A model generated the notes under the pieces. It had not been told where the DNA came from. It was given only the letters and a program-made list of their open reading frames with translations, and ran no database searches. A stretch of DNA of 64,000 bases from an uncultured Chromatiaceae bacterium (GTDB taxonomy: Bacteria; Pseudomonadota; Gammaproteobacteria; SZUA-140): contig CAZSAK010000016.1 of NCBI GenBank assembly GCA_964605155.1, positions 2,935 to 66,934 of the forward strand. The letters are read 5' to 3'. This document shows positions 4,183 through 58,331 of the stretch, piece by piece; position 1 is the first letter of the stretch; each line of letters opens with the position of its first letter. The translations under genes were made by a program, and so were the position numbers.

Positions 4183-4488
4183 ATGGTGAGAGAAAAAATT
4201 TATCCGGGCATCAATAAAGACAAATACTGTGGCATGACACCAACAGGCAATATCATCAAGGATGCGTGGGTGTTCGGTATTATACCTGAAGAACAGACCT
4301 GTGAGGGTTGGAGCTTGTCCCGTATTCAGGCGTTGTATGACAAGGTTTGCGATGCATGGGCACCTTACGGACATCTGGTCAGTAAATTGCCACAGGATCT
4401 CTTCGAACGTCACACCCGGATTTATGACAAAGCTATTAAACAGGCGCGAGAGAAGGGATGGGCCCCGGATGTCGATGAAGAAACGTAA
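4183..4488 (+). CDS. Hypothetical protein, 101 aa.
   Basis: Clean ORF after an AT-rich promoter-like spacer. No recognisable motif. Confidence 0.45.
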   Translation: MVREKIYPGINKDKYCGMTPTGNIIKDAWVFGIIPEEQTCEGWSLSRIQALYDKVCDAWAPYGHLVSKLPQDLFERHTRIYDKAIKQAREKGWAPDVDEET

Positions 4489-5160: not shown

Positions 5161-6300
5161 ATGAAGACAGATGTATTTGAACATGAAGATGTTTTGCGTG
5201 AACTGAATACCAATATCCCGTTACGGGACAAACTGCATTACATTCACAAGCTATTACGCAAGAAGTTCGACTTTATTGCCAGGATTGCAGCCACCATCTA
5301 TGACCCTAAAACTGACCTGTTGAAGACATTCGCGTACAGCAGCGATGACGGTAGTCCGCTTGTCCATTACCAGGCCAGTCTTTCAGACAGTGGAGCACTT
5401 ACCGAGATTCTGGAAAAAGGTCGTCCGCGAGTAGTCAATGACCTGGAAATCTATGCCGCGGGAGAGAAGCAACATACCAAAAGTATCCAGGCGATTGGTT
5501 ATCGTTCGAGTTATACCATGCCGATGTATCTGAACGGGACGTTTTTCGGTTTTGTATTCTTCAATTCATATCGCACAAACCCCTTCAATCAGGAAGTATT
5601 GCATTATCTTGATGTATACGGTCATCTGATTTCCCTGTTGATCATCAACGAGGTTGGTTCGATTCACACTTTACTTGCAGCACTCAAGACCGCACGCGAG
5701 GTGACGCACCATCGTGACGTGGAGACTGGTGCCCACCTCGACCGGATGTCAAGATATGCCCGATTGATCGCCAGGCAACTGGCGGAGAAATACAACTTCA
5801 ATGATGAATATATCGAGAATGTTTTTTTGTTCGCACCGTTACACGATATAGGAAAAATCGGTATTCCTGATAGTATTTTGTTGAAACCGGGCAAACTCGA
5901 TGAAGAGGAATTCACCATCATGCAGGGGCATGTTGAAAAGGGCCGGCAAATCATTGATGAAATGCTGGAAAACTTCGGCCTGGATGGCTTCCATCATGTC
6001 GATATACTGCGGAATATTGCCCAGTATCATCATGAGGCGTTGGATGGGTCAGGATATCCGCTGGGACTGCAAGGTGAGGAGATTCCCATTGAAGCACGGA
6101 TCATCGCCGTGGCCGACATTTTCGATGCCCTGACCAGTCGGCGACCCTACAAGGAGCCCTGGAGTAATGATGAAGGTTTCGAGGCATTGCGGCTGTTGGC
6201 TGGCAAGAAGCTTGACCGTGAATGTGTCGAGGCACTGATAAACAATCGCAACCAGGTTGAAGAGATTCAGACACGCTTTAAAGAGGATCACTTCGGCTAG
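5161..6300 (+). CDS. HD-GYP domain c-di-GMP phosphodiesterase with an uncharacterised N-terminal sensor domain.
   Basis: HHRDVETGAHLDRM...HDIGKIGIPDSILLKPGKL...HHEALDGSGYPLGL (HD and GYP motifs). The track ORF starts at TTG 5008, overlapping the permease fragment; ATG 5161 (MKTDVFEHEDVL) is preferred. Confidence 0.8.
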   Translation: MKTDVFEHEDVLRELNTNIPLRDKLHYIHKLLRKKFDFIARIAATIYDPKTDLLKTFAYSSDDGSPLVHYQASLSDSGALTEILEKGRPRVVNDLEIYAAGEKQHTKSIQAIGYRSSYTMPMYLNGTFFGFVFFNSYRTNPFNQEVLHYLDVYGHLISLLIINEVGSIHTLLAALKTAREVTHHRDVETGAHLDRMSRYARLIARQLAEKYNFNDEYIENVFLFAPLHDIGKIGIPDSILLKPGKLDEEEFTIMQGHVEKGRQIIDEMLENFGLDGFHHVDILRNIAQYHHEALDGSGYPLGLQGEEIPIEARIIAVADIFDALTSRRPYKEPWSNDEGFEALRLLAGKKLDRECVEALINNRNQVEEIQTRFKEDHFG

Positions 6301-8870: not shown

Positions 8871-10085
8871 ATGCAATCCAAGAGAATCCGGTTTAAAAAT
8901 AGCAACGGACAGGAACTGGCGGCATATCTGGACCTGCCTGTGGCTGGAAAGCCCCACAGTTATGCAATTTATGCCCACTGTTTTACATGTGGCAAAAATC
9001 TCAAGATCAGTCATTACATAAGTCGGGCATTGACACAGCATCACATCGCCGTGCTGCGTTTTGATTTCACCGGCATCGGGGAGAGTGAAGGTGATTTTTC
9101 TCAAACCAATTTTTCGTCCAGCGTCGATGATGTAGTAAGCGCAGCGCGGTTTCTTGATGAAAATTACGAGGGACCAAAGATCCTGATTGGTCACTCCCTG
9201 GGAGGTACAGCTGTGCTGGCCGCCACGCAAGAGATATCTTCCTGCAGGGCAGTCACTATCATTGCTTCTCCCTTTGAACCGATCCATATCATGGACCACT
9301 TTGCCCGGGAGAGGAAAATCATCGAAACAAGAGGTGAGGCAGAGATTACATTAGGTGGCCAGCAATTTATCCTAAAGAAGCAGTTCCTCGATGACCTGTC
9401 TGCCACGGATATGCATGCAGTAATCAGGGAACTCAAATGCCCGCTATTGATCATCCATTCACCCAAGGATGCCACCGTAGACATAGAGAATGCCGCGCGT
9501 ATCTATCAGGCTGCACATCACCCCAAGAGTTTTATATCGCTCGATAATGCGGATCATCTGTTATCCCGGAAAGAGGATGCCTGTTATTCGGGCACAATGA
9601 TTGCCGTATGGGCAGGCAGATATCTGTATATCGAGCATCCGCCGGATGAGTCAGGAGCGGCAGGCTATACGGTAACCAGTACCGCTGAAGAGGGCTTCTA
9701 TACAGAGATCGATGCCGATGGGCACAGTATTGTCGCCGATGAACCTGTAAGTGCAGGAGGCACAAACCAGGGAGCAAGTCCGTATGAGCTGTTATCGGCC
9801 TCTCTGGGGGCATGTACGGGTATGACACTACGGATGTATGCTGATCGCAAGGGTTGGCCACTGGAAAGCGTCAATGTCAGGCTCAAGCATGATAAGATTC
9901 ATGCCGAGGATTGCGAAAACTGTCCGGAATCCCGTGCCATGATCGATGTTATTACCCGGGAAATCGAACTGATCGGTGATTTGTCGGAGTCACAGCAAGA
10001 ACGGCTCCTGGAGATCGCCAGCCGTTGCCCGGTACACCGTACCATGCAGGAAAAGGTTGCGATTACAACACGACTAATAAAATAG
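8871..10085 (+). CDS. Bifunctional alpha/beta hydrolase / OsmC-Ohr family fusion protein.
   Basis: N-terminal half has GHSLGG (nucleophile elbow) plus a downstream Asp and His. C-terminal about 140 aa is an OsmC fold (GASPYELLSASLGACTGMTLRMYADRKGWPL...CPV). Confidence 0.8.
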   Translation: MQSKRIRFKNSNGQELAAYLDLPVAGKPHSYAIYAHCFTCGKNLKISHYISRALTQHHIAVLRFDFTGIGESEGDFSQTNFSSSVDDVVSAARFLDENYEGPKILIGHSLGGTAVLAATQEISSCRAVTIIASPFEPIHIMDHFARERKIIETRGEAEITLGGQQFILKKQFLDDLSATDMHAVIRELKCPLLIIHSPKDATVDIENAARIYQAAHHPKSFISLDNADHLLSRKEDACYSGTMIAVWAGRYLYIEHPPDESGAAGYTVTSTAEEGFYTEIDADGHSIVADEPVSAGGTNQGASPYELLSASLGACTGMTLRMYADRKGWPLESVNVRLKHDKIHAEDCENCPESRAMIDVITREIELIGDLSESQQERLLEIASRCPVHRTMQEKVAITTRLIK

Positions 10086-10313
10086 ATATTGTGAAAAATT
10101 GCCATGAACATATCGATCCAGTATTCAAGCCGCGGGCTTGATACAAAACCGCTTTAATTCAGGCGCTGAATCCTTTCTTCACAAGTCCTGTCCAGGAATT
10201 TGTCCACTATTACCGTGATACTTTTGTGATACTTCTGTTATGACCCTGAGAACTGTTTACTGTGAAATAGACAAGGTAAATATTCTTTACAATCTTAATC
10301 ACAGGAGATCGCG

Positions 10314-10526
10314 ATGTATATAAAATTAATTTCAGGGTTGTTTTCGGGTTTTATACTGTTGTTAGCATTGTCAGTCGGAGGTTGCGCGACTGATGACATG
10401 CATGATGACGGCATGATGATGAAGGAAGACAAGATGATGAAAGACGACAGTATGATGAAGGATAACGGGATGATGAATGATGACAAGATGAAGGACGATG
10501 AGGGGATGATGAAGGATTCAATGTAG
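10314..10526 (+). CDS. Small Met-rich repeat lipoprotein (predicted periplasmic).
   Basis: Signal peptide with lipobox-like LSVGGC. Mature about 45 aa is about 40% Met in degenerate MMKDD/MMKxD repeats (15-18 nt DNA repeats ATGATGAAGGA...). GGAG 8 nt upstream of the ATG. Confidence 0.6.
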   Translation: MYIKLISGLFSGFILLLALSVGGCATDDMHDDGMMMKEDKMMKDDSMMKDNGMMNDDKMKDDEGMMKDSM

Positions 10527-10536
10527 GATAGACATG

Positions 10537-10577
10537 GACATTGCCCTCTCCCGTTAGGCGGGAGAGGGCACAATGTC
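10537..10577. terminator. Stem-loop between convergent genes, probably a bidirectional terminator.
   Basis: Perfect 11-bp stem GCCCTCTCCCG / CGGGAGAGGGC extended by GACATTG / CAATGTC. T-run TTTTTTATTT follows at 10584 on the + strand. Confidence 0.5.
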
Positions 10578-10587
10578 AGCGAGTTTT

Positions 10588-11211
10588 TTATTTCTTACCC
10601 CAAAGTTCCTCGAGGCGGTCATCACGTCCGCATCTGTATCGATAAAATTTATATTTCAGCTCGTGTGTTTCATGGAAATTCTGATGATAGTCTTCAGCCG
10701 GATAGAACATTGAGGCGGGGACGATTTGCGTCACAACAGAGGCACTGAACGGCTTGGTCTTTTCCAGTTTATTTTTGGATTGTTCTGCAAGTTTGTGCTG
10801 TTCCTCATTCAGATAAAAAATGGCTGAACGGTATTGGGAACCATGGTCACAAAATTGCGCATTTGCGGTAGTGGGATCGATATTGTGCCAGAAATAATCG
10901 AGCAGTTCCTTGTAGCTGACCTTGCCGGGATCATAGGTGATCCGTACTGATTCAGCGTGTCCGGTACCACCATTAGATACCTGCTCATAGCTCGGATCTT
11001 TCACGTGACCACCGGTAAATCCCGAGGTAGTGTCAATGACACCGGGTATCTTGTCGAAGTCTGCTTCCACGCACCAGAAGCAACCCCCGGCGAAGATCGC
11101 GATTTTGTATTGGTGGTCATCCATCATACTATTCGCGGATGCATGCATGGCGTGTGATGTACTGTATAGCACCAGGGAGATCAACAACATCAGGCTCTTT
11201 TTCAGGATCAT
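10588..11211 (-). CDS. msrA: Peptide methionine-S-sulfoxide reductase MsrA, secreted (Sec signal peptide).
   Basis: GGCFWC active-site motif. Start chosen at MILKKSLMLLISLVLYSTSHAMHASA (signal peptide), 25 nt after the msrB stop. The track ORF extends to 11343 in-frame inside msrB. Confidence 0.85.
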   Translation of the reverse strand: MILKKSLMLLISLVLYSTSHAMHASANSMMDDHQYKIAIFAGGCFWCVEADFDKIPGVIDTTSGFTGGHVKDPSYEQVSNGGTGHAESVRITYDPGKVSYKELLDYFWHNIDPTTANAQFCDHGSQYRSAIFYLNEEQHKLAEQSKNKLEKTKPFSASVVTQIVPASMFYPAEDYHQNFHETHELKYKFYRYRCGRDDRLEELWGKK

Positions 11212-11236
11212 TACATTACCTCTGTAAAAAATGGTG

Positions 11237-11743
11237 TTACGCCGGAATAAAATCGAGTGCCAGACCGTTATTGCACCAACGCTGTCCGGTGGGTTCCGGT
11301 CCATCATCAAAGACATGTCCCTGATGACCGCCACATCGGGCACAATGGTATTCCGTGCGGGGAATGATCATTTTCCAGTCCCGTTTTGTTTCGACTGCAC
11401 CGGCAAGTGTGGTGTAGAAACTCGGCCACCCGGTACCACTGTCATATTTCATATCGGAGGTAAACAAGGGAAGTGCACAACCGGCACAGACATAGGTACC
11501 TTTGCGCTTTTCATCGTTTAATGGGCTGGAATGGGCTTCTTCAGTCTCTTCTTCCCGCAGTATATGGAATTCATCGGGCGTAAGGATGGCCCGCCATTCC
11601 TCTTCGGTCTTGACGATCTTATCGATCTTGCCGCTGCCTGCAGGCATGTCACTGTCTCCAAAGGTCCTTGATATGATGAGAGGCAGGACTGTCAGTCCCA
11701 GGCTCCCGAGGATGAAATGTCGTCTGTTCATCATGGTCTCCAT
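11237..11743 (-). CDS. msrB: Peptide methionine-R-sulfoxide reductase MsrB with a twin-arginine (Tat) signal.
   Basis: N-terminus MNRRHFILGSLGLTVLPLI (RRxFIL Tat motif). CxxC...CxxC zinc site (CAGC, CARCGGH) and SelR catalytic region. Confidence 0.85.
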   Translation of the reverse strand: METMMNRRHFILGSLGLTVLPLIISRTFGDSDMPAGSGKIDKIVKTEEEWRAILTPDEFHILREEETEEAHSSPLNDEKRKGTYVCAGCALPLFTSDMKYDSGTGWPSFYTTLAGAVETKRDWKMIIPRTEYHCARCGGHQGHVFDDGPEPTGQRWCNNGLALDFIPA

Positions 11744-11829
11744 GAATGCTGTCTTGTTGTTAGATAATCATACGGACTGTATATCACCTGCTTATCGCAA
11801 AATGATCACAATTTTATAACATCGGGATT

Positions 11830-17515: not shown

Positions 17516-17776
17516 ATGAACGATTGTGTCGAGTGTCATACAGTGAGTGTTGCTACAGTTGGACCATCATGGATAGCTGTTGCTGAACGTTACAAGTCAC
17601 TGTTACGCATCGAAGCCAGGAACATATTGATTGAGAGTGTCAAGAAGGGTAGTAAGGGGAAGTGGCTGACAATGAAAAGTGCCGGAGGAATGCCGCCCCT
17701 GGAGGAGCGGGTTTCAGGGGCGGATATTGACGAGTTCAGTGGATTTTATTCTGTCAGTGAATCGGACATACAGTGA
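17516..17776 (+). pseudogene. Cytochrome c551/c552-like (class I c-type) fragment lacking a signal peptide.
   Basis: CVECH heme-binding motif 4 residues from the start. Downstream VGPSW...Y...GSKGKW...MPP matches the c551 pattern. In-frame TAA 27 nt upstream and no signal peptide in any frame. Confidence 0.5.
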
Positions 17777-27399: not shown

Positions 27400-28107
27400 T
27401 TAGTTGATGTGGCACTCTTCCCCAATCTTTTCCGGATAAATATCTCCAAAGTCAGTTACCTGTTTATATTCCGCAGCAGGGTCGATCTCTCCACTCCTTA
27501 CCAACCAGATGGTATGCATGCCGGCCTGGTGAGCTGCCTCAAGTTCTTGCTTGATATCCGATAAAAACAGGCAGTTCTTCGGTTTGACAGCTATCTCCTC
27601 GCTAATTCGCTGATAGGAATTCACAGAAGTTTTTGATCCGATCTTGGTATCGAAATAACCGCTGAAAAGCGGGTTCAGATCTCCATATTCAGTATTTCCG
27701 AAGAGAAGTTTTTGAGCATGTATGGAGCCTGAAGAAAAAACGTAGAGTCTGATATCATTATCGTTCCATTTTTTGAGATTGTGGACCGCATCTTCATAAA
27801 TGTGTCCATTGAAATGCCCATTCAGGTATCCCTGTTCCCATAATAATCCCTGTATCGTCTTGAGTGGTGTGATCTTTTTGTCATCGTCAATCCATTGAAT
27901 CAATGAACGGATTATTTGATTTATATCAGGGGATTCCTCACCGATAATATTCGCTGCTTCGTCAAGAGCCTGTCGAACTAGGATATCGTTTTCATGAGCG
28001 TGGATAAATTGCTCAATATTGTCTCGGGCATATGGAAAGAGGGTGTCCTTGACAAAGGCAAGCGATGAGGTTGTACCTTCAATGTCGGTAATGATGGCTT
28101 TTATCAT
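27400..28107 (-). CDS. mtnC: Enolase-phosphatase E1 (methionine salvage, HAD family).
   Basis: ITDIEGTTSS...; HAD motifs. Operon with mtnD and mtnB. Confidence 0.85.
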   Translation of the reverse strand: MIKAIITDIEGTTSSLAFVKDTLFPYARDNIEQFIHAHENDILVRQALDEAANIIGEESPDINQIIRSLIQWIDDDKKITPLKTIQGLLWEQGYLNGHFNGHIYEDAVHNLKKWNDNDIRLYVFSSGSIHAQKLLFGNTEYGDLNPLFSGYFDTKIGSKTSVNSYQRISEEIAVKPKNCLFLSDIKQELEAAHQAGMHTIWLVRSGEIDPAAEYKQVTDFGDIYPEKIGEECHIN

Positions 28108-28664
28108 GAATGTTGTGCGACAAACTCGTCAAAATCAGGGTAACGGGTTGCAATATCATTACCGGTAAAGTTGGCTTGCCAGCCGTCAGGCGTGGTGAAA
28201 AACCGGATACATTTGAATTGTGGGTGTTCGCCCATGTCAAACCAATGTGCTGTGAGGGCCGGGACTGTGATGAGATCACCCTTTTCACATAGAACAATGA
28301 ACACATGACCGTCGACATGCAAATAAAAAAGCCCTCGGCCATCTACAAAAAAGCGCACTTCGAAATCATCGTGCGTGTGTTCTGCAAGGAACTTTTGCCT
28401 GAATGTGGCTTTTTCCGGATGATCTGGATGCAGGCTGACCACATCGATGGTTTTAAAACCATATTGTTCAACAAGGCTGTCAACTGAAGAGCGAAATGCC
28501 TCGATAATTTGTTCCTGGGATAAGCTGTTGTTGAGTTCTTTTTCAGCGGTCCAGCGTTCGAATCCGACGTGGATCCCTGCAAGTCTGCGCGCGATTTCTG
28601 CCGGATCTGTTGTAGTTTCAAAGGCATCACTGGCCGTATCGGTATATATGCTTAATACGCTCAT
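28104..28664 (-). CDS. mtnD: Acireductone dioxygenase (ARD, cupin).
   Basis: Cupin His/Glu metal ligands (HxH...E...H). Collinear with ARD. Confidence 0.85.
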   Translation of the reverse strand: MSVLSIYTDTASDAFETTTDPAEIARRLAGIHVGFERWTAEKELNNSLSQEQIIEAFRSSVDSLVEQYGFKTIDVVSLHPDHPEKATFRQKFLAEHTHDDFEVRFFVDGRGLFYLHVDGHVFIVLCEKGDLITVPALTAHWFDMGEHPQFKCIRFFTTPDGWQANFTGNDIATRYPDFDEFVAQHS

Positions 28665-29317
28665 ACTCTATCATACCCCTTTAACTTAAGTTCGCATTCA
28701 AACATGAATTCAAATGCTTCCAGATAACGCAAGGTTTCCTGGATTGATCGACCCCATGTATACAAACCATGTCCGGCAATCAGGAATCCGAAAATGGGAG
28801 GATTGTTTTCAAGATACATTACTACCTTATGTGAGAGACGTGCAATGTCCTGATCGTTCAGGAAGATTGGAATGCAGATTGAGGTTTCATGTGTGCTGAT
28901 CCGGTCAAAGGCCTTCAGGATCTCGTAGCCGCTCAATCTCAGTTCGTTATTATTTAATCGCGATATCAGGGTTGCATTGATTGAATGAGTATGCAGGACG
29001 GTATACGTTTCCGGGAAGTGTGTGTAGATCACTGTATGTAGTAAAGCCTCGGCGGATGGTTTCCTGTTATCCACCGCTCGTCCTTGGAAGTCGATGGTCA
29101 TTATATCTTCCGGAGTCAGCGCACCTTTATCCCTGCCTGAGACGGTAATGGCAATTTTGTCATGATCATATCTGGCAGAGAAGTTGCCGCTGGTTGCTGG
29201 TACCCAGCCTCTGGCATAAAGCGACTTGCCTGCATCAACCAGGGCTGATGCTATATGCTGCAATGTTTTTACTGATTGATCCATAAATTGGGTAATCTGG
29301 AAAATCGTGAAATACAA
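28661..29317 (-). CDS. mtnB: Methylthioribulose-1-phosphate dehydratase (class II aldolase/adducin family).
   Basis: Class II aldolase fold motifs (GNFS..., HTHS). Confidence 0.85.
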   Translation of the reverse strand: MYFTIFQITQFMDQSVKTLQHIASALVDAGKSLYARGWVPATSGNFSARYDHDKIAITVSGRDKGALTPEDIMTIDFQGRAVDNRKPSAEALLHTVIYTHFPETYTVLHTHSINATLISRLNNNELRLSGYEILKAFDRISTHETSICIPIFLNDQDIARLSHKVVMYLENNPPIFGFLIAGHGLYTWGRSIQETLRYLEAFEFMFECELKLKGYDRV

Positions 29318-41504: not shown

Positions 41505-42603
41505 ATGCTCGAATTGAACCCCGTTTATGAGCGTATCAAGGATATGCAGGGACGACTTGATGTCCTGAGGAGGTACCTTTGACGTTGATACCAAACAGGA
41601 ACGCCTGACCGAGGTTACGCGTGAACTCGAGAATCCTGCAATATGGGAGAATACTGAGAAGGCACAATCCCTGGGCAGAGAGCGCTCCCAGTTGCAAGAT
41701 GTCGTTGCGGCCATTGCAACCTTGACACAAGGTTTGATGGACGCTCATGCATTGCTTGAACTTGCTGAAGAAGAGCAGGATGAGGAGACAAGCCGGGAGG
41801 TCGCATCTGATCTCGAAACTCTGGAAAAGAAGCTGGCAGGACTTGAGTTTCGCCGGATGTTTTCCGGTGAAATGGATGCCAAAAATGCCTTCCTGGATAT
41901 TCAGGCCGGTTCCGGAGGAACGGAGGCCCAGGATTGGGCGGAAATGCTGTTGCGGATGTATTTGCGTTGGGGGGAGCGGCGCGGCTTTGCAACCGAACTG
42001 ATAGAGGTATCACCCGGAGAGGTGGCGGGGATTAAAAGCGCGACCATCAGGGTGGAAGGGGAATATGCTTATGGATGGTTGCGCACCGAAACGGGCGTAC
42101 ATCGGCTGGTACGCAAATCTCCGTTCGATTCGGGAAACCGTCGTCATACCTCTTTTGCTGCCGTGTTCGTCTCACCGGAGGTCGAAGATGACATCGACAT
42201 CGATATCAATCCGGCTGATTTAAAGGTCGATACCTATCGTGCCAGCGGTGCGGGAGGGCAGCATGTGAATCGTACGGATTCCGCTATTCGCATTACCCAT
42301 ATGCCGAGCGGTATCGTGGTACAGTGCCAGAGTGATCGTTCGCAACACAAGAATCGCTCAACTGCGATGAAACAGCTCAAGGCCAAGCTCTACGAACTGG
42401 AAATGCAGAAACGCACCGAACAGCAACAGGCGCTGGAGGATAGCAAGTCCGATATTGGCTGGGGTAGCCAGATTCGGTCATATGTGCTGGATCAGTCACG
42501 CATCAAGGATCTGCGCACCGGTGTTGAAACCGGTAACACACAGGCCGTGTTGGATGGGGATCTGGATGAATTTATCGAGGCGAGTTTGAAAAGTGGAATC
42601 TGA
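41505..42603 (+). CDS. prfB: Peptide chain release factor 2, expressed via programmed +1 frameshift.
   Basis: Frame 0 reads [25 protein letters not shown] then TGA at 41580-41582. The +1 frame continues [12 protein letters not shown]... with SPF and GGQ motifs. The frameshift site is AGGAGGTACCTTTGAC. Confidence 0.9.
41558..41585 (+). other. prfB programmed +1 ribosomal frameshift site (internal SD AGGAGG, slippery CUU U, in-frame UGA C).
   Basis: Seen directly in the sequence. Same organisation as E. coli prfB. Confidence 0.85.
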
Positions 42604-51781: not shown

Positions 51782-51981
51782 ATAGTGTGTGTCCTATAAC
51801 AGCACGTATTTATTTGATAATTTACGGTCTTAAACACCGCGTTATCGAGAGTATTGCTAGAGGCGCGCTAAATAGTTATATATAATCGTAAAAAGGCTAA
51901 AATCGCTGAACTTTACCAACTATATATTGTCTATGAATATTAGCAAAGGGATTTGCTCCCTTGCGAGAGGGGTTTGCCCGG

Positions 51982-52557
51982 ATGGGCGAGAGTAATGTCG
52001 ATCAGCATCTTGTTGAACGTGTACAAAAGGGTGATAAACAGGCATTTGATGTCCTTGTACGTAAATATCAACATAAACTGGTAAAACTGATCTTGCGTTA
52101 TGTTCATGATCCTGATGAAGTTATGGACGTCGCCCAGGAAGCCTTTATCAAGGCCTACCGTGCTCTCCCCGGATTTCGCGGAGACAGTGCGTTCTATACC
52201 TGGCTATACAGAATTGCCATCAATACGGCCAAGAATCACCTTATATCGCAAGGACGCCGGCCGCCCGACGAGGATATTAATGTCGAGGATGCTGAACAAA
52301 TGGAGGCAGATTCTGGTCTAAAGGAATATGCGACACCGGAGCATCTGCTCGCCAAGGATCAGGTTGAGGCAACGGTGTATGAGGCGATAGAAAACCTGCC
52401 TGATGATTTACGGACCGCGATAACATTACGTGAATTAGAAGGCCTGAGTTATGAGGAGATAGCTGAAGCGATGGGTTGTCCTGTTGGAACTGTACGTTCC
52501 AGGATTTTCAGGGCAAGAGAAGTCATTAACAACAAGCTTAAACCGTTTTTGGATTAA
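51982..52557 (+). CDS. rpoE: ECF sigma factor sigma-E (RpoE/AlgU).
   Basis: LVERVQKGDKQAFDVLVRKYQHKL...; sigma-70 regions 2 and 4. Confidence 0.9.
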   Translation: MGESNVDQHLVERVQKGDKQAFDVLVRKYQHKLVKLILRYVHDPDEVMDVAQEAFIKAYRALPGFRGDSAFYTWLYRIAINTAKNHLISQGRRPPDEDINVEDAEQMEADSGLKEYATPEHLLAKDQVEATVYEAIENLPDDLRTAITLRELEGLSYEEIAEAMGCPVGTVRSRIFRAREVINNKLKPFLD

Positions 52558-52583
52558 GGTTGGCTTAGAAAGTGGTGGAAGAT

Positions 52584-53228
52584 ATGAGCAAGAATTCAGC
52601 TGAAGAAGTATCCATGTTGATGGATGACGAGGTCGATGAGTTTAGCAGGGTTCGTATCGTTAACAGATTGCGAGATGATGCCTACATGAAGTCCTGTTGG
52701 GAGCGTTACCATCTCATTGGCGAAGCCTTGCGTAACAACCTCCCTGATGTAATCAATCCAGACCTTCCTGATCGAATAGCCAACTTCCTGCGTAACGAGC
52801 CCGACCACCATACTGAAACGCCCCGATCCACGACTGCCGCACGACCCCGCAAGGCAATGACCGGCATGGCGCTCGCTGCATCCCTCGCTGTTGTGGCGGT
52901 GGTCGGACTGCTCCAGATAACCAGGCAGGATGAATCACCTCTTCAGCAGGTAGCGACGACGCAGGATAACACCACTCTTCCATCACCCAATGTGGAGCTC
53001 GCAACGACGTCCCAGGAACAGACCGTGGCTTCACTGCCAGTTACGAGACAACCGGTCACGAGACAAACCGTGGATTTTCGAATCAAACAGGCTGAAACAA
53101 ATCGCCAGGTTGTGGACACAACCCTGTATGATTATTTGATGCATCATAACGAGTATACCGCCACGATGCCGGTGCAGGCAGGCATGATTCCCTATGCCAG
53201 GGTGGTCGGCTACGCCTCGGATGAATGA
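52584..53228 (+). CDS. rseA: Anti-sigma-E factor RseA/MucA.
   Basis: N-terminal RseA anti-sigma domain (LMDDEVDEF...WERYHLIGEALR), TM helix and periplasmic tail. Confidence 0.8.
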   Translation: MSKNSAEEVSMLMDDEVDEFSRVRIVNRLRDDAYMKSCWERYHLIGEALRNNLPDVINPDLPDRIANFLRNEPDHHTETPRSTTAARPRKAMTGMALAASLAVVAVVGLLQITRQDESPLQQVATTQDNTTLPSPNVELATTSQEQTVASLPVTRQPVTRQTVDFRIKQAETNRQVVDTTLYDYLMHHNEYTATMPVQAGMIPYARVVGYASDE

Positions 53229-53472
53229 TGTCAAAGTGAATTTCGACAATTGAAGCAGGGGATAACCGGTACGTATTAGACAATACCGCGTTTATTTTAT
53301 CTCCTTTCATGAAATAGATAAGTTATTCGCGTTGGATCCCCCTTTAGTGGTGAGCTTCATTCATGATAATAATCATCGACAAGCCATATCCCCCCCGCCA
53401 TGCCTGCTCGCGTTCCGTGACGTATCAAGGCTCAAATAAAATACGTCGCATTTGCGAACCAGTAAGTTCGAA

Positions 53473-54468
53473 ATGATGTTTAAACCCCTGTCCCGAATCA
53501 TCCCGATCATACTTCTTGCCGTCACATCCAGTATAGCGTATGCATCAGAAAACAAGGATGATGCGGCTTCCTGGCTGATCAGGATGTCCCAGGCGATGAA
53601 TACGAAAAGTTACAGTGGAACTTTCGTGTATCAGAGCCTTGGTTTGCCGATGGTGGCAATGAAGATCCTGAGGGTGAATGATGAAAATGGCCCTCGCGAG
53701 CGGTTGATACTGCTGAACGGAGGACAGGGAGAGGTCATTCGGAACCATGATGGCGTAACCTGCAAGTTACCAAACTCGAATCCTATGGTGATGAACAGAC
53801 GAGGACCAAAAAAAGTCTTTCCTCCGAGGAATATCAATGTATTTAAACAGGCATCAGGCCTGTATTTACTATCGATGAAACCGGCACACCAGGTTGCAGG
53901 AAGACACGCGCGACTGATCGAGATTATCCCGACGGATAATCTACGCTATGGATATCGTGTCTGGCTGGATAAAGAAACCGGGCTGTTGTTGAGATCACAG
54001 TTAATTGGTACGTCAGGCAAGATACTGGAACAATTAATGTACACATCCATTGACGTTTACGACGACGCACCGGATATACTTAACCGGGAAATACCTGTAC
54101 AGGTGGTCGCGGATGATCGAGATAAATCTATCGAATTTTCCAAACCTATTGATGGTGACGCTCATACATGGCAGGTTAATAACCTTCCTAAAGGGTTTGA
54201 GCTGGCGGAACGTAACAAGGAATCATTTCAAAAACACAAGCAGTTCGAGCATCTGGTTTATACCGACGGGCTCGCATCAGTTTCTGTATTCATTGAAAAA
54301 GGGAACGATCAACCGTCATTTATTGGAGAATCGCATATGGGTGGGATAACAGCATACAGCAGCGTGGTGGATAAGCATCGTGTAACAGTTGTCGGAGAGG
54401 TCCCAATCGAAACATTGAAGATGATGAGCAGCGCTGTCAGTTACACAGCGGCTGATTTGCGCAGATGA
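53473..54468 (+). CDS. rseB: Sigma-E regulatory protein RseB/MucB.
   Basis: Signal peptide. MucB/RseB family order and length. Confidence 0.8.
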   Translation: MMFKPLSRIIPIILLAVTSSIAYASENKDDAASWLIRMSQAMNTKSYSGTFVYQSLGLPMVAMKILRVNDENGPRERLILLNGGQGEVIRNHDGVTCKLPNSNPMVMNRRGPKKVFPPRNINVFKQASGLYLLSMKPAHQVAGRHARLIEIIPTDNLRYGYRVWLDKETGLLLRSQLIGTSGKILEQLMYTSIDVYDDAPDILNREIPVQVVADDRDKSIEFSKPIDGDAHTWQVNNLPKGFELAERNKESFQKHKQFEHLVYTDGLASVSVFIEKGNDQPSFIGESHMGGITAYSSVVDKHRVTVVGEVPIETLKMMSSAVSYTAADLRR

Positions 54469-54950
54469 TCGAGGAAAAAGGCAAGATAATAGACGTTCAG
54501 GATGATATGGCGTTGGTTGAAATTCAGCGTAAATCGGTATGTCATACATGTTCGTTGAACAAGGGATGCGGAACGGGTGTGATTTCCAGTATGATCGGGA
54601 ACAAGAGATTCCGGTTTTCCGTGTATAATTCCATAAATGCAGCTGTCGGAGATAACGTCACTATTGGAATCGAGGACGACCTGTTATTAAAAAGTTCGTT
54701 TGCAGTGTATATTACACCGTTGTTACTGATGTTTATCGGTGCCTGGTCGGGAACTTATGTGGCCAATCTGTTCACGATGGCATCTTCGGAAGGAATATCG
54801 GTGATATTCGGCATGTTGGGCCTGGCTTTAGGTTTTGTATGGTTGAAACGCTATTCAGAGAAAATCAGGAATGATGATCGCTATCGCCCTATCTTATTGG
54901 GATGCCGGCCTGATATTGATGTTATAGCCCCGCCAAATTCCGTTAATTAA
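54465..54950 (+). CDS. rseC: RseC/MucC (SoxR-reducing system) family protein.
   Basis: N-terminal Cys cluster (CHTCSLNKGCG) and two C-terminal TMs. Confidence 0.75.
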   Translation: MIEEKGKIIDVQDDMALVEIQRKSVCHTCSLNKGCGTGVISSMIGNKRFRFSVYNSINAAVGDNVTIGIEDDLLLKSSFAVYITPLLLMFIGAWSGTYVANLFTMASSEGISVIFGMLGLALGFVWLKRYSEKIRNDDRYRPILLGCRPDIDVIAPPNSVN

Positions 54951-56534: not shown

Positions 56535-58331
56535 ATGAAGAACATCAGGAATTTTTCAATCATTGCTCATATAGATCACGGAAAATCAACACTTGCAGAT
56601 CGATTGATTCAGATATGTGGCGGACTCAGCGAGCGTGAAATGTCTGAGCAGGTATTGGATTCGATGGATCTCGAAAGGGAGAGGGGAATTACAATCAAGG
56701 CACAGAGTGTTTCGCTCAATTATCAAGGCAGTGACGGTAACCAGTATCTGCTTAACTTTATTGATACACCGGGTCATGTTGATTTTTCCTATGAAGTATC
56801 TCGATCCCTGTCTGCATGCGAGGGCGCATTACTGGTTATAGATGCCTCACAGGGTGTCGAAGCGCAAACAGTGGCGAATTGCTACACCGCAATCGAACAG
56901 GGGCTGGTGGTAGTTCCTGTCCTGAATAAAATAGATCTCCCGACAGCAGAGCCGCAGAGAGTAGTTACAGACATTGAAGAGATCATCGGTATCGAAGCCC
57001 ACGATGCCGTGTGCGTCAGCGCAAAAACCGGCGCAGGTGTGGAACAATTACTCGAAGAGATTATTTTCAGGATTCCGCCTCCAGACATCGACACGGATGC
57101 CCCGCTGCAGGCCCTTATTATAGATTCATGGTTTGATAATTATCTCGGAGTCATCTCACTTGTCAGAATCATGAAGGGGACTCTTAAGGTAGGACAGAAA
57201 GTCACGGTGATGTCGACAGGAAGAAGTTATCAGGTTGACAAATTGGGGATCTATACACCAAAACCTCGTGACATGGTGTCATTAAACTCGGGAGAAGTTG
57301 GTTACATTAATGCCGGTATCAAGGATGTGGAAGGGGCGCCGGTCGGAGATACCCTGACACTGACAGACCGTCCGGCAGTAAAGCCATTACCGGGATTCAA
57401 GGCGGTGAAACCACAGGTATTTGCCGGGTTGTTTCCGGTAAATGCCGCCGATTACGAATTATTGCGCAATGCGCTGGCTAAGCTACGCCTCAATGATGCA
57501 GCGTTGTTTTATGAGCCCGAAACATCCCAGGCACTTGGTTTTGGATTTCGCTGTGGTTTTCTGGGCATGCTGCACATGGAAATTGTGCAGGAGCGTCTGG
57601 AGCGTGAATACGATCTTAACCTGATTACCACCGCGCCCACTGTTATATATGAAATCCTGAATGCGAGCGGTGAGATTCTGTATGTAGATAATCCATCCAA
57701 ACTCCCGGAATCCGGGCAGATTGCGGAAATACGTGAGCCTATTATTCGCGTCGACATACTGGTTCCGCAAACTTATTTAGGCGCGATAATGACGCTTTGT
57801 ATCGAGAAACGGGGCGTCCAGAAAAAGATTCAATATCACGGAAATCATGTCGTAATATCCTTTGAGTTACCCATGAACGAGATTGTCCTGGATTTCTATG
57901 ATCGTCTGAAGTCAGTGAGCCGTGGTTATGCATCCATGGATTATGCATTTCAACGTTACCAGGTCGCGCGGCTGGTAAAACTGGATTTATTGATAAATGG
58001 TGAGCGCGTGGATGCCCTTTCGGTCATCGTCCATCAGGATCGTGCCCATTATCGGGGCAGGGAACTGGCGGAGAAAATGCGGGAACTGATTCCTCGCCAG
58101 ATGTATGATGTTGCAATCCAGGCCGCTGTCGGATCTCATATCATCGCGCGTGAGACTGTCAAGGCACTGCGTAAAAATGTTACGGCAAAGTGTTACGGCG
58201 GTGATATTACTCGCAAGAAGAAGCTTCTGGAAAAGCAAAAAGCAGGCAAGAAACGGATGAAACAACTGGGCAATGTTGAGGTCCCCCAGGAGGCGTTTCT
58301 TGCTGTACTACAAACAGGGAAAAAAAGATGA
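56535..58331 (+). CDS. lepA: Elongation factor 4 (LepA).
   Basis: [27 protein letters not shown] and the LepA C-terminal domain. Confidence 0.9.

Follow-up and report, generated by a model that had tools for sequence, protein, structure and literature searches.

In a 64,000-nucleotide stretch of DNA from an uncultured Chromatiaceae bacterium (contig CAZSAK010000016.1 of assembly GCA_964605155.1; this whole stretch is called the window below), a gene for a small methionine-rich lipoprotein converges on an operon for two methionine sulfoxide reductases, MsrB and MsrA, that carry predicted export signals. On balance we think it likely that this locus encodes a module for the redox cycling of methionine in the envelope, and that it does with thiol enzymes what is done in the published systems in which the methionine-rich peptides MrpX and BcrX are paired with the reductase MsrP. 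The lipoprotein appears to belong to the class of proteins with Met-x-Lys-Asp-x (MxKDx) repeats, and comparative context strongly ties this class to envelope methionine-sulfoxide reduction. The MxKDx peptide itself appears to be an accessory that has repeatedly joined envelope Msr systems of either chemistry.

The concept of a sacrificial methionine peptide served by a repair enzyme is already published. A first-pass annotation of this DNA had regarded the pairing of a methionine-repeat peptide with periplasmic Msr as undescribed, but MrpX-YedYZ (PMC4436054), BcrXQP (PMC8315932) and c3566-c3568 (PMC8550376) are precedents. Judged from the sequences, what is new relative to MrpX and BcrX would be a thiol MsrA/MsrB partner whose enzymes are exported separately, a lipid anchor on the peptide and a probable response-regulator operator.

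Conservation of the methionine-rich lipoprotein gene

The open reading frame (ORF) at 10314-10526 on the plus strand encodes a precursor of 70 amino acids, MYIKLISGLFSGFILLLALSVGGC before and ATDDMHDDGMMMKEDKMMKDDSMMKDNGMMNDDKMKDDEGMMKDSM after the lipoprotein cleavage point, and has the lipoprotein signal and MMKDD-like repeats that were first noticed there. Its 23-residue signal peptide (10314-10382) has a Lys-containing n-region, a 16-residue hydrophobic core and the lipobox S-V-G-G-C24, with the codon of the predicted lipidated Cys24 at 10383-10385; SVGG-C24 fits the PROSITE lipoprotein pattern PS51257, as matched by eye. A Shine-Dalgarno sequence, AGGAG (10303-10307, plus strand), stands 6 nt ahead of the ATG, and its GGAG is invariant among orthologues. 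The 47-residue mature protein contains 14 Met (30%), 15 Asp/Glu, 7 Lys and 1 His, and the Met share of the whole precursor is 21%; the figure of about 40% Met given earlier for the repeats was too high. The repeat units (MMKED, MMKDD, MMKDN, MKDD and MMKDS, with three exact M.KD matches) are encoded by a tandem DNA repeat at 10415-10517 (plus strand), which Tandem Repeats Finder resolved as an 18-nt period in 5.7 copies and a 54-nt period in 1.9 copies (scores 108 and 143). No other ORF of at least 35 amino acids in the window exceeds 16% Met.

A search of 5.8 billion proteins returned nine orthologues at 57-81% identity, so the small ORF is conserved in relatives. Both G23-C24 and the MHDDG that follows the lipobox are invariant in all nine, most end in MMKDSM, and gene callers place the same gene at the same position in independent assemblies. 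Differences between orthologues favour third codon positions (for example 13/8/21 in a pairwise, ungapped comparison of the first 33 codons). Because nine orthologues retain the lipobox Cys, the Shine-Dalgarno site and a coding-type substitution pattern, we judge this to be a real and conserved gene for a predicted exported Met-rich lipoprotein, a reading with which the composition and profile comparisons (below) agree. Exact-product look-ups gave no record for the window lipoprotein or for MsrA, and their context was taken from a near-identical cluster member (P0011) and from the orthologues. A profile search of 1.84 billion representatives gave 56 matches at E<=1e-3, a number that, given composition correction, is no measure of family size.

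A structured-RNA reading of the same DNA was rejected. Rfam returned only sub-threshold matches to archaeal C/D-box snoRNAs (sR30 and sR5) at 10473-10530 on the plus strand, at 19.8 bits against gathering scores of 38-40. These matches arise because Met codons give repeated ATGATGA, and they are a predictable false positive for MxKDx genes.

The msrB-msrA operon and its predicted export signals

The lipoprotein gene converges, across a gap of 61 nt, on msrB-msrA, both on the minus strand. The first gene, msrB (11237-11731), encodes a 164-amino-acid peptide-methionine (R)-S-oxide reductase (PF01641, 6.6e-44; TIGR00357, 141 bits), and msrA (10588-11211) a 207-amino-acid peptide-methionine (S)-S-oxide reductase (PF01625, 8.8e-64; TIGR00401, 190 bits). 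The first-pass annotation had assigned a twin-arginine translocation (Tat) signal to MsrB and a Sec signal to MsrA. Both are conserved in orthologues, but its msrB start at 11743 should most likely be replaced by 11731, where MNRR begins in all orthologues behind a GGAGA site.

The putative twin-arginine signal of MsrB, MNRRHFILGSLGLTVLPLIISRTFG followed by D, begins MNRRHFIL. The motif N-R-R-[HQK]-F-I-[LI], the hydrophobic core and the cleavage site between SRTFG and D are conserved in orthologues, with RR invariant in five; among 12 sampled MsrB homologues, 11 have RR and one has KRR, and all 12 have a 1-Cys active site. The window MsrB has two Zn CxxC pairs and the catalytic RWCNNG, with Thr in place of the resolving Cys (SGTGWPSF), and its closest PDB entries are 1-Cys MsrB types. 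MsrA begins with a Sec-type signal, MILKKSLMLLISLVLYSTSHA followed by M, that has a Lys-rich n-region and a hydrophobic core, and its small-x-A cleavage site (SHA, AQA or AHA) is kept in orthologues. Its active site is GCFWC, and the nearest solved structure is E. coli MsrA. The extensions that precede the catalytic domains comprise 21 residues in MsrA and about 25 in MsrB.

An exported MsrB had been presented as unusual. The homologue searches point instead to a very large clade of Tat-signal MsrB in environmental Gammaproteobacteria: relatives of the window enzyme fall into at least 120 protein clusters at 65-82% identity, with the whole query covered, signal included, and those with names come mainly from Gammaproteobacteria metagenome-assembled genomes and Thiohalophilus, and also from Competibacteraceae. 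Within this clade of roughly 162-amino-acid Tat 1-Cys enzymes (P0029-P0131; L031-L033), msrB is often encoded singly or as msrB-msrA, with CcdA and thioredoxin not nearby.

MxKDx genes and Msr systems in other lineages

Scans with the clade alignment gave 19 MxKDx loci in species-representative genomes and 31 on metagenome contigs, from many phyla, and we probed these loci by tblastn for MsrA, MsrB, MsrP, MsrQ, a fusion of CcdA and thioredoxin (Trx), Trx itself and a response-regulator/histidine-kinase pair. At least five lineages, among them the window clade, have an MxKDx gene no more than 5 kb away from genes for exported thiol Msr enzymes. In Zetaproteobacteria (L007/L036 and L047), for example, an MxKDx lipoprotein gene has as neighbours a gene for an exported MsrA-MsrB fusion and the operon of an OmpR-type response-regulator/histidine-kinase pair, from which it is divergent. 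Desulfovibrio-like loci (L019, L055-57) have the order MxKDx, response regulator, histidine kinase, CcdA-Trx, exported MsrAB. An alphaproteobacterium-like locus (L062) encodes on one strand an MxKDx protein, a Tat-like MsrB (KR rather than RR) and a Sec-MsrA, which is the triad of the window.

The repeats are also fused to thioredoxins, in both orientations. A TlpA-like periplasmic Trx with a C-terminal MxKDx tail is encoded within ccdA-trx-msrA/B clusters in four loci (L059, 1144-1773; L060, 4944-5603; L063, 5521-6129; L064, 4095-4703). The gene order of these four loci matches the published ccdA-trx-msrAB-modRS locus of F. nucleatum. In eight further loci (L009, 7983-8627; L011, 1418-1966; L013, 2445-2879; L016, 2077-2625; L017, 1296-1988; L039, L053 and L054), MxKDx repeats are fused N-terminally to an exported thioredoxin-fold domain (WCPxC); such fusions occur in Pyrinomonadaceae, Saccharibacteria and other metagenome-assembled genomes. 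MsrPQ adjoins an MxKDx gene in three loci (L008, L025 and L058). The literature that we searched, coverage of which is incomplete, held no description either of MxKDx proteins paired with exported MsrA/MsrB or of MxKDx-Trx fusions.

Separately, Actinobacillus encodes secreted proteins of 112-124 amino acids and 26-28% Met (L010, 7983-8321; L014, 7995-8333; L023, 7983-8357) that consist of near-perfect 12-residue MMKDDKMMSDKH repeats; Msr, Trx and two-component genes were not found within 8 kb of them.

Phased direct repeats upstream of both units

Both transcription units are preceded by operator-like arrays of GTGATA/GTTATA direct repeats. Ahead of the lipoprotein gene, three of these, GTGATACTTTT GTGATACTTCT GTTATGACCCT, phased at 11 bp, occupy 10215-10247 on the plus strand (an 11-nt period in Tandem Repeats Finder; alignment A2) and are followed at 10248-10283 by a promoter-proximal block, GAGAACTGTTTACTGTGAAATAGACAAGGTAAATAT, that is near-invariant in orthologues. 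Altogether a 70-nt block that begins with the three repeats is almost invariant among orthologues, with diverging flanks, and the repeat columns are invariant in six orthologous upstream regions. Upstream of msrB, four repeats of the same phase, GTTATAAAATT GTGATCATTTT GCGATAAGCAG GTGATATACAG, lie at 11777-11820 on the minus strand (alignment A3). TAAATA at 10277-10282 is a possible -10 element of the lipoprotein gene and TATGAT at 11767-11772 a likely one of msrB; these assignments are made from conservation, since a sigma-70 scan made no call at either promoter. An extracytoplasmic function (ECF)-type promoter (GAAC...CGT) in the lipoprotein upstream block was considered and rejected, its spacing of about 21 nt being unsuitable.

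The pattern GTGATMNNNNNGYGATA has exactly two matches in the 64 kb, upstream of the lipoprotein gene and of msrB (0.05 expected), and a three-unit phased motif has 43 matches in the 1.23 Mb of window and loci (about 0.3 estimated by chance), figures that overstate significance because the patterns were written after the sites had been inspected. All 43 lie at lipoprotein or msr promoters of the window clade and of Zetaproteobacteria. The first pattern also matches upstream of msrAB in the zetaproteobacterial locus L007, and this cross-clade match is an independent one. There the array, GTTATACAATC GTGATCATTTG GCGATAACAGC, is almost identical to that of the window msrB. Arrays of GTTATC/GTTATA with this phasing also precede the lipoprotein genes in L007, L041 and L047. 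The zetaproteobacterial arrays (L007, 4291-4340 on the plus strand, 6122-6166 and 4231-4256 on the minus strand; L041, 1148-1190; L047, 5246-5290) precede the MxKDx lipoprotein gene and msrAB; the OmpR-type response-regulator/histidine-kinase operon next to them is preceded by an array as well, oriented the other way. This arrangement suggests an autoregulated two-component regulon that is conserved across two proteobacterial classes.

Sites of OmpR/PhoB-family response regulators are typically phased direct repeats. As both promoters in the window share an array of this type, and Zetaproteobacteria encode such a regulator next door, the lipoprotein gene and msrBA probably belong to a single regulon, controlled by a two-component system whose genes lie outside the window. 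The response regulators of L007, L047 and L019 match generic OmpR/PhoB-family models only, below equivalog cut-offs. Those of L007 and L047 do not reach the HprR or heavy-metal response-regulator cut-offs, and an identity as HprR or CusR was rejected for all three.

Published relatives of the repeat and of the enzymes

Three published systems pair a Met-rich peptide with MsrP. In Azospira suillum PS, hypochlorite both induces and oxidises the periplasmic Met-rich MrpX, which the MsrP homologue YedY1 then regenerates, and the yedY1-yedZ1-mrpX operon is under SigF/NrsF (Melnyk et al. 2015, PMC4436054). Brucella BcrXQP, under BcrS/AbcS, is the same system, and BcrX was termed an 'MXKDX repeat protein' and a homologue of MrpX (PMC8315932). 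In uropathogenic E. coli, c3566-c3568 (MsrP, MsrQ and a Met-rich peptide) are under the two-component system OrhK/OrhR (C3564/C3565), and the OrhR site is reported as the inverted repeat TCACA-N15-TGTGA (PMC8550376).

The window locus shares with MrpX-MsrPQ and BcrXQP a small exported peptide that consists almost entirely of Met and charged residues and whose gene adjoins that of a periplasmic methionine sulfoxide reductase. The logic proposed for those systems, in which Met is oxidised sacrificially and regenerated enzymatically and an envelope-stress regulator governs peptide and reductase together, is what we propose here. Four features set the window apart. First, the reductase of MrpX and BcrX is MsrP, a molybdoenzyme to which the membrane protein MsrQ passes electrons of the quinone pool, whereas here it would be thiol MsrA and MsrB, exported separately by Sec and Tat. 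Second, MrpX and BcrX are soluble, with a type I signal, and the window peptide has a lipobox. Third, their regulators are the ECF sigma/anti-sigma pairs SigF/NrsF or BcrS/AbcS, acting at a GTAAC...CGAA-type promoter, in contrast to the OmpR/PhoB-style direct repeats found here. Finally, their genes form one operon and the units in the window are convergent. The two-component control exerted by OrhK/OrhR and by E. coli HprRS (hiuH-msrPQ) parallels the pairs beside MxKDx genes in L007, L019, L047 and L058, although both systems regulate MsrPQ and the inverted repeat of OrhR differs from the 11-bp-phased direct repeats of the window.

MsrA and MsrB domains outside the cytoplasm also have precedents. 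Periplasmic MsrAB of the H. influenzae ccdA-trx-msrAB locus repairs many native envelope proteins (PMC9404787), and F. nucleatum ccdA-trx-msrAB-modRS is an extracytoplasmic thiol Msr system with the ModRS two-component system (PMC9239216); neither paper mentions a Met-rich partner, and the F. nucleatum paper does not mention a Met-rich Trx tail. These systems and Neisseria PilB (Trx-MsrA-MsrB) share with the window MsrA/MsrB domains placed outside the cytoplasm and a role in defence against hypochlorous acid (HOCl) and peroxide, both of which are predictions for the window; the link to an OmpR-type two-component system is seen in F. nucleatum and in L019 and L055-57. PilB, H. influenzae and F. 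nucleatum have MsrAB fusions with a Sec or lipoprotein signal and CcdA/DsbD and Trx alongside, whereas the window has separate MsrB and MsrA, a predicted Tat signal on an MsrB that lacks a resolving Cys, and neither CcdA nor Trx in 64 kb.

Within the repeat family itself, an alignment of the window clade (A1) matched canonical penta_MxKDx (TIGR02953) in hhalign at 98% probability (E=7.7e-14). We treat the window protein as one of the MxKDx repeat class but, with no TIGR02953 match of its own, not as a formal member of that family. Proteins of that family share with the window protein a signal peptide followed by Met-x-Lys-Asp-x repeats. The window protein differs in having a lipobox rather than an AxA site, MM doublets with a period of 5-6 residues, and the clade-specific MHDDG and MMKDSM ends.

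Proposed mechanism and its implications

We propose the following cycle. The precursor, which carries the sequence features for it, would be exported by Sec and lipidated on Cys24; because the +2 residue is Ala or Ser, E. coli sorting rules make the outer membrane its probable destination. This would leave in the periplasm a disordered, acidic tail of 47 amino acids with 14 exposed methionines. By analogy with MrpX and BcrX, HOCl, chloramines or peroxides would turn the thioethers into a mixture of R- and S-methionine sulfoxide. MsrA would be exported through Sec and MsrB through Tat, already folded because it binds Zn; between them the two enzymes have both stereospecificities, and they would regenerate the sink and repair other envelope proteins. 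A two-component system encoded outside the window would induce both units together through the motif found at both promoters. To be recycled, the reductases would depend on a periplasmic reductant whose gene lies elsewhere, DsbD/CcdA with a Trx-like protein as intermediary being the most likely one; other lineages cluster CcdA-Trx with MxKDx and Msr genes, or fuse MxKDx repeats to that Trx.

If confirmed, this scheme would extend the sacrificial-peptide paradigm, demonstrated so far only with MsrP, to thiol MsrA/MsrB outside the cytoplasm, and would make MxKDx (as a free peptide, a lipoprotein or a Trx tail) a recurrent envelope methionine redox-buffering module in many phyla. It would also provide handles for experiment: a defined operator motif, a candidate OmpR-type regulator family and an easily synthesised 47-amino-acid peptide. 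Further, it would sharpen the question of which reductant serves the common Tat-exported 1-Cys MsrB where CcdA-Trx is not encoded alongside. That electron donor, together with the apparently unreported modular use of MxKDx in thiol Msr systems, is to us the most interesting point.

Evidence against the module and alternative explanations

Several observations weigh against a redox-cycling module. Many MxKDx loci (Actinobacillus, several Alphaproteobacteria; L020, L022, L024, L052 and L061) have no Msr gene within 6-8 kb. On co-occurrence in relatives, a check that the first-pass annotation had suggested, the Met-rich gene and exported Msr genes stand together in the window clade and other lineages, but in three sampled genomes that carry Tat-MsrB of this clade a Met-rich ORF is missing within 7 kb. 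The enzymes evidently do not need the peptide in order to function, and their chief task may be envelope repair in general. Synteny within the window clade was drawn from close relatives and is not independent evidence. The signal peptides were judged by motif rules and conservation, and the Pfam TAT_signal model scores MsrB at 13.6 bits against a threshold of 22.7. The TIGR02953 model does not match the window protein at E<=10; with its curated cut-off at 41 bits, it gives the orthologue P0005 21.8 bits (E=1.4e-4) and the L007 protein 22.8, both below that cut-off, and 71 to the positive control, Bradyrhizobium L022. Likeness between low-complexity repeats can also be convergent, and the operator statistics are inflated as described above.

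Finally, the redox cycle is incomplete within the window. The earlier statement that no reductant partner is encoded nearby extends to the whole 64 kb: Pfam scans of the ORFs found no thioredoxin-fold protein and no DsbD/CcdA, no real ORF has a [WFY]CxxC motif, and the fused CcdA-Trx of L019 and the Trx of L011, used as tblastn queries, were without a match. E. coli MsrP and MsrQ gave no tblastn match in the window either, and the Pfam domains Oxidored_molyb and Ferric_reduct were not found there. Neither a SigF/NrsF pair nor an OmpR-type regulator or two-component system was found in the 64 kb, and the only ECF sigma gene is in rpoE-rseABC (51961-54950), 40 kb away.

Of the alternatives, the one that survives best is that the two units are neighbours without coupling, MsrB and MsrA carrying out general envelope repair and the lipoprotein being a hydrophilic spacer, a stress protectant or a methionine reserve; it would then be no dedicated sink and no preferred substrate of the enzymes. 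The commonness of the Tat-MsrB clade, which usually lacks an adjoining Met-rich gene, fits this explanation, as do the many MxKDx genes that have no Msr gene in the 6-8 kb around them and the broad repair of native envelope proteins by H. influenzae MsrAB (PMC9404787). It leaves unaccounted for the operator-like motif that is common to both promoters and conserved across clades, the recurrence of the pairing in at least five lineages with different gene orders, the fusion of the repeats to a thioredoxin of the Msr pathway, and the action of the homologues MrpX and BcrX in HOCl defence. We consider it unlikely, though with a real chance of being right.

A second alternative keeps the cycle and changes its electron source. 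The locus would form a self-contained outer-envelope cycle without the DsbD/CcdA-to-thioredoxin relay, its donor being, for example, exported low-molecular-weight thiols or an unrecognised one, and MxKDx would serve thiol Msr systems in general as a modular substrate or as a docking element. Such a role would explain why MxKDx is also fused to the periplasmic thioredoxins of ccdA-trx-msrAB clusters. We offer this as speculation with an outside chance; if true, envelope Msr enzymes would have a new electron route, and a widespread repeat would gain a new functional class.

Met-rich periplasmic proteins are classical Cu(I)/Ag(I) ligands (CusF, PcoE/SilE and the CueO insert), and the first-pass annotation had raised Cu(I) binding, with MxxM motifs, as another role for the peptide. 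The lipoprotein would then be a periplasmic sponge for Cu(I), Ag(I) or another soft metal, binding through its Met thioethers and MHDDG, and its proximity to msr would be incidental or reflect protection of the metal site. Besides these precedents, the invariance of MHDDG after the lipid-anchored Cys throughout the clade and the presence of a cation diffusion facilitator (CDF)-type efflux gene and MacAB-like pumps 3-7 kb away are compatible with metal binding. The mature peptide, however, contains neither MxxM nor HxxM and, being rich in Asp and Lys, does not resemble the known Cu(I) Met motifs. When six copper proteins of E. coli (CopA, CueO and CusC/F/B/A) served as tblastn queries, no homologue turned up in the window or near the roughly 50 MxKDx loci, the single match being a generic, 26%-identical membrane fusion protein; Msr, Trx or CcdA genes, by contrast, are present at many of these loci. 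A metal sponge is therefore improbable.

The peptide could also be a signalling component whose oxidation state is read by the histidine kinase of a linked two-component system, for which it would be a co-sensor or ligand; it would then report methionine oxidation in the envelope and not buffer it. The zetaproteobacterial lipoprotein gene is divergent from a response-regulator/histidine-kinase operon, the Desulfovibrio-like gene lies directly upstream of such a pair, and several other MxKDx loci (L018/L051 and L049) have a two-component system and no Msr gene in reach. Near the genes of the window clade, however, no two-component system was found; a stoichiometric sink explains Met density and variable repeat number more simply, and the published homologues behave as abundant sinks, which makes a signalling role very improbable.

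That the small ORF is a repeat-driven artefact and no gene, as its low-complexity composition, its lack of any significant Pfam or NCBIfam match and an equally long ORF on the opposite strand might suggest, is effectively refuted by conservation, the start, Shine-Dalgarno site, signal, lipobox Cys and C-terminus all being kept in at least nine orthologues with third-position-biased substitutions, a conserved upstream promoter/operator and gene calls in independent assemblies. The opposite-strand ORF itself (10295-10573, 92 amino acids) was rejected as a consequence of the repeat, since the complement of ATGATGAARGAYGAY is expected to lack stops; such an ORF is also found in the unrelated L007.

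The shared stem-loop and other features of the window

Between the lipoprotein stop (10526) and the msrA stop (10588-10590) lies a perfect 11-bp stem-loop at 10543-10569, which belongs to neither strand in particular and was rightly described at the outset as common to the 3' ends of both genes. Its arms, GCCCTCTCCCG and CGGGAGAGGGC, enclose the loop TTAGG, its fold z-score is about -5.5 on both strands relative to shuffled sequence, and in orthologues the stem is conserved and the loop variable. A dispersed repetitive extragenic palindromic (REP)-like hairpin was rejected, since the arm word CCCTCTCCC occurs just once more in the 64 kb, at 56677. Nor is it a canonical intrinsic terminator, because a T-run follows it on the plus strand only, and only past a gap; a terminator scan made no call. 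It may be a bidirectional terminator or a 3'-end stabiliser, and 'shared 3' stem-loop' is a safer name for it than 'terminator'.

The window has a GC content of 48%. Its gene order, read from Pfam scans of the other ORFs, suggests a gammaproteobacterium-like chromosome, and the names of the nearest MsrB homologues were the other basis of this placement. Neighbouring genes recognised by Pfam include rpoE-rseABC followed by a DegP/HtrA-type protease gene, lepA, lepB, rnc, era, recO, pdxJ and acpS, as well as sdhCDAB, prfB-lysS and a methionine-salvage trio. Directly upstream of the lipoprotein gene, at 8871-10085 on the plus strand, lies a possible oxidative-stress gene, whose product is an alpha/beta-hydrolase fused to an OsmC-like (peroxiredoxin-family) domain. 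It adjoins the lipoprotein gene in the closest relatives. As a candidate part of the module it was rejected: an ORF of 562 amino acids with no Pfam match intervenes in L001 and L005, and another gene stands upstream in L003 and L004. This hydrolase-OsmC gene is probably outside the module.

Further away, genes for a HAD hydrolase, an acireductone dioxygenase (ARD) and a class II aldolase lie at 27400-29317 on the minus strand, 16 kb from the Met-rich gene, and this trio has the composition of a methionine-salvage mtnC/mtnD/mtnB cluster. At 41692-42603 (plus strand), a release-factor-2-like ORF of 303 amino acids (PCRF and RF-1 domains) starts at position 35 of the PCRF profile; this start and the shortness of the ORF fit the usual programmed +1 frameshift of prfB, with a first exon upstream in another frame. 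An 86-amino-acid ORF at 17516-17776 (plus strand) starts MNDCVECH, with a CxxCH haem-binding motif and no obvious signal peptide, and may be a truncated or mis-started small c-type cytochrome; the relative L027 has a 34-amino-acid ORF call at this place.

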